NCBI RefSeq assembly: GCF_009914755.1
Contig: NC_060925.1
Length of the DNA: 64,000 nt
Source of the DNA: the human T2T-CHM13v2.0 reference genome, Homo sapiens
Reading direction: 5' to 3' (one strand)
This document shows, one piece after another, positions 19,468 through 25,400 of the stretch. The translations under genes were made by a program, and so were the position numbers. Numbering within the stretch: the stretch's first letter is position 1; each line of letters starts with the position of its first letter. A model generated the notes under the pieces. That model saw only the letters and a program-made list of their open reading frames with translations, had not been told where the DNA came from and ran no database searches.

Positions 19468-22400
19468 CTGAAAAAGAAAAACACAAAGTAGCGGCATGAA
19501 AATTAACAAAATTTGCAAAAAAAGGGCAGAGCTTATATTTATTCCTATCATTATATTTATTATATTCATGTTGTAATATCAAACAGTGTTAGAAAGGCAG
19601 GGAGGAGCTGTGAACAGAATGGCTCCTCTCACAACAACGGCCTGCGGCATCAGCCAACACGTTACAAGTCGCTTGGAAGTTAAGCCAGAGCTTTGAAAAA
19701 GAAAATTAAACTCTGATTTACATGTCCAGCTGTGGTGCATGCTGGGCTTGGAATCAAAAGACACAGGTTTCAGGTCCAGCTTCACTCCTTATTAGCTTTC
19801 TTTACTTCTCTAGGCTGCACTTCCCTGATCTGTCACAGGGACAGTGTTCTTAACTCGCAAAGTTACCATGAGCTCTGAATGAGATAAGGTATTTCAAGGT
19901 ACGCTGTAAAGCGTTAACTGCAGGATGTAAGGTAGCATTGTTATTCTTTCCTTAAAGAATTGTCAAAAGATTCACACTGTACAATTATGTAAGAATAGAA
20001 GCAAGACCTTCGGCCTGGTGGTTGTATTACTAAAACATGTGCAAACTAATAAGCCTGAAACAACAATGTACCAAGACAAGGCGTAACTGTTAGAAGCTTT
20101 CATTGCAAAGCTAAATTACAAATTGAGCAATGGTAGACTACAGGCACAAATATTTCTGTTTTAAACAGAACATAAATTACCCAGCAATAGAGTGGTTGCT
20201 ATGTCAAATAGACGTGAAAGGCAAAACTGGGGGTGGTTGGGATGTAAAAAACCAGGAGAAGGGGCAAAAATAACTAAAGTTGAACAGTGAGGCTTACTTA
20301 TTCTTCATTAACTACTGAGGCATCTATGAGTTTAATTTCACACACTTCAAATTCACACAGTCCTCTCCAGTGCTTCTGGAAACAAGAGCCAGGAACGATC
20401 ATGGTCTGCTAGACTCCTCACACACAGTGTCCGTCAGGGATAATTCCTGGCTGCTGTAAAATTCCTGGCTGCAATAAAATGCAACCAAGTAGGCTAAGTG
20501 CTACCACTCAGAGTAATGTAAAATGGGCTCTGTCTACAAGTTCAAACACTCCTGAATACTGAGCCTAAGAGTAAACAGGCCAAGAGAAGTGAATACCTGA
20601 TCATATAAATAAGACTTTGGTAATTTTCTTTCACCAACTACTTTTTAAATTTTTTATTCATGGTTCTTTAAGAGTCAGGGTCTCACTCTGTCACCCAAGC
20701 TGGAGTGCAGTGGTGCAACCATAGCTCACTGCAGCCTCAAACTCCTAGGCTCAAGAGATCCTCTCGCTTCAGCCTCCCAAGTACTTGGGACTACAGGCAC
20801 ACACCACCATGCCCAGCTAATTTTAAATTTTTTTGTAGAGGGGAGCAGTTTCACTATGTTGCCCAGGCTGGTCTCGAACTCCTGGCCTCAAATGATCCTT
20901 CCACCTCAGCCTCCCAAAGTGCTGGGATTACAGGTATGAGCTACTGTGCCTGGCCTTCATAGTCCATTTTTATCCATACATTCACCCTTAAAAGGTTATC
21001 TTATACAACAGCAAAACATTTTAACCTTGAAAAAGTGAATTAAATTCATTGTATTACATATTAACTTATAAAAATGAGTATAACAGTTCCAGTTTTCATA
21101 GCGCTCCAAAGTAACAGGAAACTCCTTTTCCTCCTCCAGTTATGATACCCTTGTGTGGACCCCCCTCAAGTAGTTACCTTTTCAAGTTCATCCAGCTTTT
21201 GGCGACTTTGCTAAAGGCCTCTGAACCAGGGGCTGTCATAGCTTCAAAGTCGACTAACTGAAAAAGAAAGACATTTAGGAATGTTACTAAACATGGAGGA
21301 CACAGGCTCGGCTGGAGATCTATGTAACTCGTGTACCTTAAAATAAAAATCCATAAATTGGGACTTAATACATAACCAAGCATTTCTCCCTTCCCGCTCC
21401 AACATACCTTCCCTTTGGGAATTTTTCCTGCTACTTCTTTTCCACTTGCCATCAGTGCTCCCACGATGACCGAGTAAGCAATTACACTATTTAAATAAAG
21501 AACAAAGGTCAATCCATCCTGGACGGTCTACAGTTACCATGTTAAATTTCACCATGGACTTCCCATCATGAAAGATAAAATTTATTCAAAAATTCTTTCA
21601 AATAAAACACCGAATGTTTCATTTAACATGAAAATATGCCTATTTGTTTAAGAATAGTTACTAATTTACTATTAGAATATATTTACTGGCCAGGTGAGGT
21701 GGCTCACACCTGTAATCCCAGCACTTTGGGAGGCCAAGGTGGGCGGATCGCTTGAGGTCAGGAGTTTGACAGCAACATGGCGAAACCCTGTCTCTACTAA
21801 AAACACAAAAATTAGGCCAGGCATGGTGGCTCACACCTGTAATCCCAGCACTTTGGGAGGCCGAGGTGGGTGGATCACTTGAGGTCAGGAGTTCGAGACC
21901 AGCCTGACCAACATGGCAAAACCCCATCTGTAACAAAAATACAAAAAATTATCCAGGAGTGGTGGCATGTGCCTGTAGTCCCAGCTACTTGGGAGACTGA
22001 GGCAGAAGAATTGCTTGAACCCGGGAGGCAGAGGTTGCAGTGAGCCGAGATCGCTCCACCGCACTCCAGCAATGCATGTATACAATAAAGTTCATAAATA
22101 CAAATACATATGTTAGTCTTACTTTTTAAGCATTAGAAATGCTGGCCTTCAAAGAAGAAATGCAGAATACATTCTCACAATGTACTAACGGACAGATGGT
22201 TTGGAGATTTGGGCATGTGTGTGAACTGCCAGGGCTCCAAGGTGGCTGTTAGAGGCCAGGGGATTGTGGGGTACCTTTGCCTGCTGGCTCGGAGGCTCGT
22301 GGGGCAAGGTCTGCTGCCCTGTCACTCCAGAACGAGTGTAGAGCTGCGAGTGTGCAGGTCTGGGGTAGGAGGCATTTGTAAGACGTTGTGCTTCTGCTCT

Positions 22401-25400
22401 TGGTGAGGGAAGAGAGGGAGCTGACTGGTTTTGGGTGGAAGGGGCTGGCAAAAGGCCATGGGACCCACTATTGTAACCACAGTGTTGTGCTTTTCCCAAA
22501 ACAAATCGGCTCAAAATAAAGACAGCTCTCACCCATGAGATAATGCATCCTAGCAGGTGGAAAGGATGGCACGAGCACCTGAGAAAGCTAACAAGTGCCA
22601 TGGGTGGACACCAAGAAAAGTGAGTCAAGGTGATTCATGGGGTTCTCCAGCAGGGAAGACTTCAGAGGCTAAAGACATGTGCTCTGCAACCTCCAGGGTC
22701 CCAGGGCTGAAGATGAAAGGGGCAGAGAAGGCAGGGAGATGTGGCAGAGAGCCCACGTGGAAAGCCAAGGGGAAGCAAAAGAGCCACGGAAGAGAGCGGT
22801 GCTGCAGCCAAGGCAAACCAGGGCAGGGCAGGGCTGGCACTGCGCACTGTGTATGCTGCCAAGCTCGGCTTAAACCCATGGTTTTCAGAAGGTGCTGGAG
22901 AGCCGCAGGGCACAGAGAGGAGCAGGAGCAAAGCTAGCTGTGGCGGGTACAGGGAAGAGAGAAACAGAAGTGTGGGAGGCAGAATCAACAGACTATTTAG
23001 GATTGAAGAGATGTAGGGATGAGGCAGAGTTGAGGACAATCAGAGCTGCACGTCCTTCAATGTCACACGTGAGCCAGCAGAGCTGCTGTGAGGACAAAGG
23101 ACGGATGCTGGCTGTTGAGTACAGTGGGGCCCACAAGCGGTGATGTGCACAGGCCTCACATCCCTTATTCAGTGGACACAACTAGCAATATTATGCTGAT
23201 AAGACAACATTTATGTTTCTATTTTGTTTCAATGAGTCTTAAATTCTATAACCAAATTTACTACCACACTTAGGGGAGTTTTACTTTCTAAGCCATTAAT
23301 CAAAGATAAAGACATTCAAGTGTATTATTTTTAGCCAAAACATCTTAAGTTCAACTATGTGCCAGTAATGGCAAAAGGCCATTTACATAATTTACTGCAC
23401 ACAGTACTGGGAAAAGGAGAATGAAATGAAAACTCTACAGTCATAGCTCTTGTTTTAATGATACCTAAAAAACTCCTGATATACAAGTAGCAAGAATTTA
23501 TCCAAAATAATAAAAATAGTACAGAGTGACTGTTGGCCCAAAAGTATAAAACATGAGGATTATGGGTCACCTGACAGCCCAAAATGGAAAAGGAAGAGGA
23601 GGAGGAAGAGGTTCAGTAAGAGGCTGGCAGATACAAAAAATTAAAACACACTGAGCACGGCACATGATACACAGTAAACTTTCCATGAACTTGTGTTGAA
23701 TGGATGAATCCCTATCCTATTAAACGTAAGCACACTATATTAGAACTGTCTTCTATAATTCTTTTGCTGATGTGATAGACTAAGGAAATATTTTTTTGTG
23801 CAGATTTTGGAAAAAAATAGGGAGCTCCTTACCATTTCTTTGTGTACTCTGTACCTATATCCATAACAGGAAGGATAAGCAAAAAAGAACACATTTCTCA
23901 ATTTAAAATAATTTTAATGACAGGATATTACTTACCTGGATCCTCGAGAGAGTGGCATTAAATTATAAAAGTAATAAACTAAGGATAAGATTAAGTTGCA
24001 GACAGCATCAGCCTCCTAGAAAAAAAAGATAGACTCATAAATACTATAAAGATTACAAACTAATTTTTCATTAGGTGACAGAACACACAAGAATAATCTA
24101 CATCAAGAAAAGGATTGTTTTCTTCCTCCCCCATAAGAATCTACTTTTCAAATTCTTGAATATTCTATACCCTTTTGTATCATTTTTTTCCAATTTAGTT
24201 CAATTTAGAGCAATGTTTTCCCAGCTGTTTCTTAAACTGCAACTCTTGGATAAACATAAAAATCTCAGTCTCCTTTAACGTTATTTGAAATGTCAAAATA
24301 TATATTGTGACTAAAATTTTAAAAGGCATTTATTAACACCAAATATGTTCTCTCAAACAACATGTACCTTACCCCAAAAGATCTGGGTAAGCCCCTTCCC
24401 CTACTCCGCATTGAGATTTGGATGATGCTCAATTATGTGTATAAACTTAGATGTTTAATTATATGGATGCAGTGATTAAATGTTGGAGAAATAAGGTGAC
24501 TTTTCAAGGGTAAGGGGCACCCGTCCACTGCAGAACACAGAGAAGGGGCGTGGTGGGGAGAGAATGTCCACCATACCCTGCTGCCTGTAACGACTCCACC
24601 TCGAGTCCAAGCAGACAACCAAAGAAGAAGGCCATAGACCAGGAAAGGGCCGCCAAGTGCAAAGTATACACAACTTCATTATACTTTCCTTGCCATTAAC
24701 TCATCAGAATGCATCATCCAGTTTACATTCAAAAGCTCCTTGTAAATATACGGTTATAAGCAACAACCGCAACGAAGGGAAGAAAATGGAAGAAAAAGGT
24801 GAAGCCCAGGTCATTTTCATTATGGACCAGCTTTTTTATATCTTGTCAAAGCCCAAACTTATGATAATGTCATAGTGCAGTACTAAATTATTAATTTATT
24901 ATCCTCCCCATTACTGTAGTTACTAAATACAAGAATTTTTGCCTATAAGAAATAAGAAATATTTTTAGGTCAATTCAACCCAATTTCAAGCATAAGATGT
25001 ACAATCTCAGTGAAAGGGCAGAGGTTCAAAAAATTTACAAAAGAATCATAGGAAGAGCAGAAAAATGGAAACAAAGAGAAACCTACCCCAAATTCTGATG
25101 AAAGAATCAATACTTTTCCTTTTGCTGTCAAATCTTTATAAAGTGCATCTATTTCAGCATGATATAATTGTGTCCTTTCTTCCGTGGTTTGAGTTTCCAC
25201 AGAAAATAATATATTGCCAACTCTGAAAATACAAAAATAAGTGTGAAAGGCATGTATTATAAGTTCAAACAGCCAAACACAGAAAGTTTTTTTTAAAAAG
25301 CAAATAGCATACTGACGTAGCACTAAACATATACAAGAATGTACCTTACCTTTCTAACTATAGACAAGCAAGGTAGGTTTCATGAGAATGCATTCTTTCT

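Follow-up and report, generated by a model that had tools for sequence, protein, structure and literature searches.

A predicted AvrB-type Fido domain behind the tetratricopeptide repeat array of human TTC13

FICD (HYPE), to our knowledge generally treated as the sole human Fido protein, is an AMPylase and deAMPylase of BiP in the lumen of the endoplasmic reticulum (ER), in which tetratricopeptide repeats (TPR) stand before a Fic domain with the canonical loop HPFIDGNGR and its catalytic histidine; it is not known to have the upper beta-sheet lobe of AvrB. AvrB and AvrC are secreted type III effectors of the bacterium Pseudomonas syringae (Pfam PF05394; PDB 1NH1, 2NUD, 8TWS). As described in parts of PMC10866546, AvrB is a glycosyltransferase that depends on uridine diphosphate (UDP)-rhamnose and has no metal requirement; in the mutants R266A and D297A, modification is lost or reduced; the beta-phosphate of the donor is contacted by R266 and G267, the alpha-phosphate and rhamnose O2'' by A269 and A270, and O3'' by D297, with further contacts from G46, N62, Y65, R99, T125, Y131, and H217. 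SRFR1, a brake on effector-triggered immunity in plants, ends in the SACT domain, conserved in eukaryotes including animal orthologues (parts of PMC12862871, Plant Cell, 30 December 2025). The subject of this work is TTC13, an intron-rich gene of a eukaryotic host, on the minus strand of a 64-kb stretch of the human T2T-CHM13v2.0 reference genome (contig NC_060925.1; the window, with positions counted from its first letter). For TTC13, a TPR protein, localisation to the ER and co-purification with TTC17 and TMEM131 have been described (parts of PMC10783571). An earlier note on the window had proposed an AvrB-type Fido domain at the TTC13 C-terminus; this proposal is supported by the Foldseek match of the predicted structure, by the family profile, and by conservation.

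The coding sequence was spliced from the 19 annotated coding parts of TTC13 in the window, and residue numbers refer to the protein encoded there unless query numbering is indicated. Joined, the parts read in one open frame through 689 codons to a stop, with AG at all 19 acceptors and GT at all 18 internal donors. The protein string given in the earlier note was reproduced letter for letter, and splicing bore out its positions for the Arg codon (Arg596, 23944-23946) and the Asp codon (Asp628, 21249-21251), 32 residues apart; should the reference protein have 860 residues, the two would be R767 and D799 in it. From the predicted model described below, we are highly confident that the C-terminal part of some 320 residues (about 331-651) forms a bilobed AvrB-type Fido domain. 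It would be encoded by ten exons in 21178..38114 (-): 37984-38114 (partly), 37308-37440, 36308-36400, 33888-33971, 32977-33061, 28660-28769, 25087-25222, 23936-24015, 21408-21486, and 21178-21257. The interval flagged earlier, 21178..24015, does hold the Arg loop and the Asp; the domain is larger, with ten exons in place of three.

For structure prediction, full-length orthologues were retrieved by searching with one TTC13 exon, and residues 286-731 of a chimpanzee isoform (P0120), identical to the window protein over the last 560 residues, were taken as the query (446 residues; query residue equals window-protein residue minus 243). AlphaFold2, run on an alignment of 66 sequences (A1), gave a model of these C-terminal 446 residues with a mean predicted local distance difference test score (pLDDT) of 93.8 and a predicted TM-score of 0.93. 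Six matches at E <= 1e-3 were obtained when the model was searched against PDB with Foldseek, as the earlier note had advised, and each was to an AvrB entry, with E-values from 1.7e-6 to 4.3e-5 and TM-scores, normalised to AvrB, of 0.54-0.56; Fic proteins came next, at E 0.04 and above. In a ranked structure comparison, ranks 7-45 were occupied only by Fic-domain proteins (AnkX, 11.0; Shewanella Fic, 10.2; FICD, about 9; lowest, 6.6), after which the score dropped to 3.7. AvrB entries first and Fic proteins after them indicate that the fold is that of Fido proteins and, among these, the bilobed one of AvrB. The model contains the helical Fido core, with the loop MPLSRG between helices at query residues 329-348 and 355-369, and the match spans the whole of AvrB, upper beta-sheet lobe included.

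The loop motif could also have been a chance match in an unrelated helical domain, and single-sequence searches by themselves would allow this: phmmer with the 446-residue C-terminus against PDB sequences gave no Fido protein, its four rows (E 0.49-0.84) being put down to chance, and Pfam searches with 13 single-exon TTC13 peptides gave nothing outside TPR families. The gapless alignment to FICD, discussed below, likewise lies at chance level. The structure searches of the predicted model exclude this explanation, which we hold to be extremely improbable. In the full-length orthologue P0090 all Pfam matches above the cut-off are of TPR type, nearly all of those listed lying within residues 149-287; the sole C-terminal row, HSCB_C at E 0.069, was dismissed as noise.

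A link to AvrB was also obtained from sequence profiles. A profile of 30 family members lacking TPRs (A2) was searched against 177,635 distinct PDB sequences; only three were returned at E <= 10, all of them AvrB (1nh1, 8two, 2nud; E 0.15, 13.8-13.9 bits). In this alignment, with a gap of one residue, the family loop MPLsRGsaa lies on AvrB MPDQRGSAA (R266, G267, S268, A269, A270) and vDwEAil on SDIEAML (D297); TTC13 Arg596, Gly597, Ser598, and Asp628 thus fall on R266, G267, S268, and D297. The profile match agrees with the independent structure search in both the protein and the residues. The AvrB loop given in the earlier note fits MPDQRGSAA, its spacing of 31 residues between R266 and D297 was recovered by counting along the 1nh1 alignment, and its account of AvrB as a nucleotide-sugar glycosyltransferase agrees with the parts of PMC10866546 cited above. 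An ESM Atlas feature search pointed the same way, as a lead only, its scores of 0.86-0.88 being below 0.9 (186-198 of 256 features in common): in the three named clusters that score best, 26-28% of members bear AvrB_AvrC, and a Fic cluster is found at rank 17. The exon of the loop and its preceding helix is 23936..24015 (-), with Gly597 at 23941-23943 and Ser598 at 23938-23940 beside the Arg codon; the helix after the loop is encoded by 21408..21486 (-), with Ser599 and Val600 at the positions of AvrB A269 and A270, the Ser599 codon being split across the junction of the two exons; the exon 21178..21257 (-) encodes LVDFEAM..., with Glu630 at 21243-21245 two codons after Asp628. Relative to AvrB, the TTC13 domain is about 35 residues longer, stands behind a TPR array, and in animals belongs to a protein with a signal-like N-terminus.

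Among the feature neighbours of the TTC13 domain in the ESM Atlas, bacterial clusters in which roughly one member in four bears AvrB_AvrC (353-430 residues, mostly Pseudomonadota and Actinomycetota) rank beside a plant cluster; these are possible relatives beyond the classical AvrB and AvrC effectors. A scan of genome contigs with a 27-base degenerate pattern of the AvrB loop gave 20 loci, all rejected as chance matches in unrelated frames.

The comparison with FICD fared differently. The FICD string given in the earlier note is contained exactly in the human FICD exon; the gapless TTC13-FICD alignment built on it is no better than chance, with 6 of 29 identities and an equal score in 6 of the 661 registers along TTC13, so that this part of the argument would not stand alone. 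The resemblance beyond chance is to AvrB and is not a sequence match to FICD. The canonical motif HPFx[D/E]GN[G/K]R with its catalytic His is not found: at the equivalent register TTC13 reads MPLSRGSSV, with Met for the catalytic His, Arg for D/E, and Ser for Asn. TTC13 has no match to the Fic family (Pfam PF02661), and the two architectures, TPR followed by Fido, are parallel without a detectable relationship between sequence profiles.

It could be supposed that TTC13 is nevertheless a Fic-like nucleotidyl or phosphoryl transferase, which, like FICD, AnkX, and Doc, would use ATP or CDP-choline for AMPylation, phosphocholination, or phosphorylation. The canonical motif is absent, the alignment A2 and the human FICD exon were paired by hhalign at a probability of 0.19%, and the Pfam Fic model finds FICD alone in the human genome; this reading we regard as improbable. 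Classical AMPylation is unlikely because the Fic catalytic His is missing, as it is in AvrB. AnkX, the Legionella phosphocholine transferase of the Fic family, keeps this His (H229A structure 4bet) and needs Mg2+, unlike the metal-free AvrB. The pairing offered by hhalign, FICD HPFIDGNGR with family 'hTP..GQ....RY', was rejected as chance, the latter being a region of beta-strands in the model. The stretch 'GFGSHTP...GQ....RY' is itself conserved in the family (residues 429-446; exons 36308-36400 and 33888-33971; upper-lobe beta-strand region in the model), and may correspond to the sugar-contact region of AvrB at T125/Y131.

The family was collected by an exhaustive HMMER search with the C-terminal query over 1.84 billion representatives, in which 825 relatives passed E <= 1e-3, with 429 of them also within E <= 1e-10. 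Homology extends along the whole C-terminal domain behind the TPR array. The representative of the plant SRFR1 cluster ('suppressor of RPS4-RLD 1'; P0158) was matched at E 7e-49 with 31% identity to the TTC13 C-terminus, from which it follows that the domain is common to TTC13 and SRFR1; judged by sequence, TTC13 is the animal orthologue of plant SRFR1. SRFR1 likewise consists of TPRs followed by the SACT domain; in it and in other plant proteins a PANT domain and IDR1 are added at the N-terminus (parts of PMC12862871), which is not signal-like. Exon-wise searches, which are insensitive, gave no evident paralogue of the domain in the human genome.

Conservation was counted in a query-anchored alignment of the best 150 of the 825 relatives, query row included, to which all row counts below refer. 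In query numbering, the Arg loop is conserved as P350 (129/134), L351 (125/134), R353 (128/134), G354 (130/134), and S/T355 (130/134), and the Asp helix as D385 (120/129), E387 (117/129), and A388 (116/129). The loop Arg and Gly and the Asp are thus each retained in 93-97% of rows, those of plant SRFR1 included, and Arg and Asp occur together in 117 of 128; the comparison of orthologues suggested in the earlier note, with plant SRFR1-like proteins taken in, finds both residues near-invariant, not strictly invariant. Human TTC13 agrees with the majority in each of the 37 columns conserved to at least 85%. Further conserved residues, in window-protein numbering N353, R355, R392, R402, R441, and Y442, are candidates for equivalents of the N-lobe contacts of AvrB. 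The motif is of two types: ...(V/A)VAY ... L.D(F/L/M)EAM in animal-type members, and YYWYNFMPLSRG(S/T)AA...Q.DWEAIL, also written (F/Y)YWYNFMPLSRG(S/T)AA, in plant/protist-type members.

A distant family fragment (P0140) had a sole match in the human genome, the Arg-loop exon (23929-24018 (-); E 3.3e-4, 70% identity). This exon is, on sequence comparison, the most conserved part of the domain; P0140 is 41% identical overall and 70% across the exon.

Near-invariance bears on the possibility that the domain is a Fido-fold pseudoenzyme, in which an AvrB-like cleft and beta-sheet would bind a peptide or a nucleotide as an adaptor or sensor and Arg and Asp would serve for binding only. AvrB itself binds the RIN4 peptide tightly via the sheet of its upper lobe (parts of PMC2686095); the family has no Fic catalytic His and has lost Arg, Gly, and Asp in some lineages; the known roles of SRFR1 are in condensates and as an adaptor, with the function of SACT stated as unknown (parts of PMC12862871). 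Conservation of 93-97% in the residues that contact phosphate and sugar, from animals to plants and protists, is however more typical of a working active site, and AvrB shares the motif without His and yet is an enzyme. On balance we take the pseudoenzyme to be a plausible account, if the less likely one.

The reading preferred here is an AvrB-type Fido transferase behind a TPR array, in the animal orthologue of SRFR1; as a whole, we give it a probability of roughly 50%. What the analysis shows is the fold in the predicted model, a correspondence of the MPLSRGS loop to R266-G267-S268 of AvrB and of the D-x-E-A helix to D297, and the near-invariance of these residues; the enzymatic function is a well-founded hypothesis, not a result. 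Binding of a nucleotide or of a nucleoside diphosphate-linked group by the domain is probable; real transferase activity has slightly less than an even chance. In the mechanism proposed, the pocket would probably bind a nucleoside diphosphate-linked donor, the phosphates of which would be held by Arg596, Gly597, the backbone of the loop, and the start of the next helix; Asp628, with the conserved Glu630, would position the group to be transferred; the sheet of the upper lobe would present Ser or Thr of a client, to which the group would pass; and the TPR array would select the clients. For animals, the ER lumen is proposed as the site because animal TTC13 has a signal-like N-terminus and is described as ER-localised. 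UDP-rhamnose is absent from human cells (parts of PMC10866546), and any donor of TTC13 must therefore differ; it would most likely be another nucleotide sugar. The Ser found in animals in place of Ala at a position that contacts the sugar is consistent with a different donor: in the column equivalent to A269, Ala stands in 109 of 133 rows and Ser in 18, the latter mostly animal-type. The co-purifying TTC17 and TMEM131 would point to collagen and ER-exit cargo as clients. In its full form the proposal would make TTC13 the second Fido enzyme of humans, a transferase of AvrB type in the ER lumen by which an undescribed modification is placed, from a nucleoside diphosphate-linked donor, on secretory clients chosen by its TPRs; this we hold to be less likely than not.

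The compartment was approached by a crude hydropathy test for a signal, applied to 81 proteins with an initial Met and no fewer than 300 residues ahead of the domain, other rows being dropped. A signal-like N-terminal hydrophobic segment was found in 8 of 12 animal-type proteins, versus 3 of 66 of plant/protist type. To judge from these sequences, the AvrB-like domain of animals seems to work in the secretory pathway, and that of other lineages in the cytosol or nucleus.

Several points weigh against a transferase of AvrB type. The identity of TTC13 to AvrB is just 13-15%, and the profile match, with E 0.15, falls short of significance when taken alone. The human TTC13 sequence has no Pfam AvrB_AvrC or Fic match at E <= 1 and does not reach the gathering score of PF05394 (23.2 bits); AvrB_AvrC is touched by one of the 30 family members, at E 0.025. 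A six-frame search of the human genome with this model gave 0 matches, but so did 14 control genomes, and the search therefore carries no weight either way. Human TTC13 has Ser-Val at the donor contacts A269/A270, against Ala-Ala in AvrB and in the majority of the family (Ala in the A270 column, 72/133). The Arg is lost in 5 of 128 rows, and P0161 and P0165 are also without the Gly and the Asp, from which it follows that some lineages manage without the motif. The adaptor and condensate roles of SRFR1 have so far been explained without catalysis (parts of PMC12862871).

The rows without Arg, P0136, P0139, P0141, P0161, and P0165, are animal-type representatives; their sequences suggest a lineage-specific decay to a non-catalytic form.

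The likeness to AvrB is in part already in print, for the orthologue in plants and not for the human gene. In the covered parts of PMC12862871, one sentence of the discussion remarks on a likeness of the predicted SACT domain to AvrB and on a possible rhamnosylation of targets by it, the function of SACT being stated as unknown. TTC13 is not named in the main text of that paper, which has a Supplementary Figure S3a on animal orthologues. The literature search for TTC13 or its full names together with Fic, Fido, AvrB, SRFR1, or AlphaFold gave nothing relevant, and for eukaryotic AvrB-like Fido proteins it gave only the AvrB paper; domain-classification tables of the human AlphaFold proteome, which did not turn up in it, may already list the domain. 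SRFR1, TTC13, and eukaryotic relatives are not mentioned in the covered parts of the AvrC preprint; in those of the founding Fido paper (Kinch 2009, PMC2686095), the TTC13/SRFR1 family is unmentioned, TPR occurs only with HypE/FICD and eukaryotic Fic proteins, and the word 'tetratricopeptide' is absent. A second human Fido domain, of AvrB type and with the cosubstrate residues intact, would offer a concrete biochemical hypothesis for an almost unstudied ER protein. If the proposal is true, a new protein modification may exist in the secretory pathway, and the C-terminus of SRFR1, long without an explanation in this regulator of plant immunity, would gain a mechanism. AvrB would then be one branch of a eukaryote-wide family, no longer an isolated bacterial oddity, and the AvrB/AvrC effectors of bacteria would be related to, or mimic, an enzyme family that is ancient and pan-eukaryotic.

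Upstream of the domain, the TPR array in the window is encoded by seven exons in 43775..57931 (-; residues about 1-243). Its end and a helical linker lie in two exons in 41407..43949 (-), 43775-43949 and 41407-41563. The linker (query residues 1-87) is upstream of the AvrB-aligned part and confidently modelled, with two helices (query residues 10-27 and 38-51), the first part of a third (84-98), and a pLDDT of 89-97 for the block past its first 10 residues. When the full-length protein was compared with PDB sequences by phmmer, TPR proteins only were returned, OGT/SPINDLY on top for the TPR part. OGT/SPINDLY, like TTC13, join a TPR array for the choice of clients to a nucleotide-sugar transferase, in TTC13 a proposed one; their catalytic domain is of the GT-B fold and unrelated to the Fido domain of TTC13.

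The last coding exon, 19353..19467 (-), encodes C-terminal helices (residues 653-689) outside the AvrB-aligned part; in the model these helices lie at query residues 412-445, and the alignment with AvrB stops at query residue 406-408. In the human isoform X11 (P0087, 792 aa), the terminus ...SWMNLKSQEFYSS... from an alternative 3' exon (18691-20468 (-)) replaces the last 38 residues, by which the helices just past the AvrB-aligned core are removed. The last two exons of the Fido domain are separated by an intron (21258-21407 (-)) of 150 bases, in frame and free of stops, and an alternative TTC13 transcript in RefSeq has a single exon 21178-21486; retained, the intron would add 50 residues between the Arg loop and the Asp, three residues before Asp628. 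Insertions are also present in predicted isoforms of other mammals, in P0093 at the junction of exons 21408-21486 and 21178-21257, and in P0030 at the preceding exon junction, immediately past the Arg loop.

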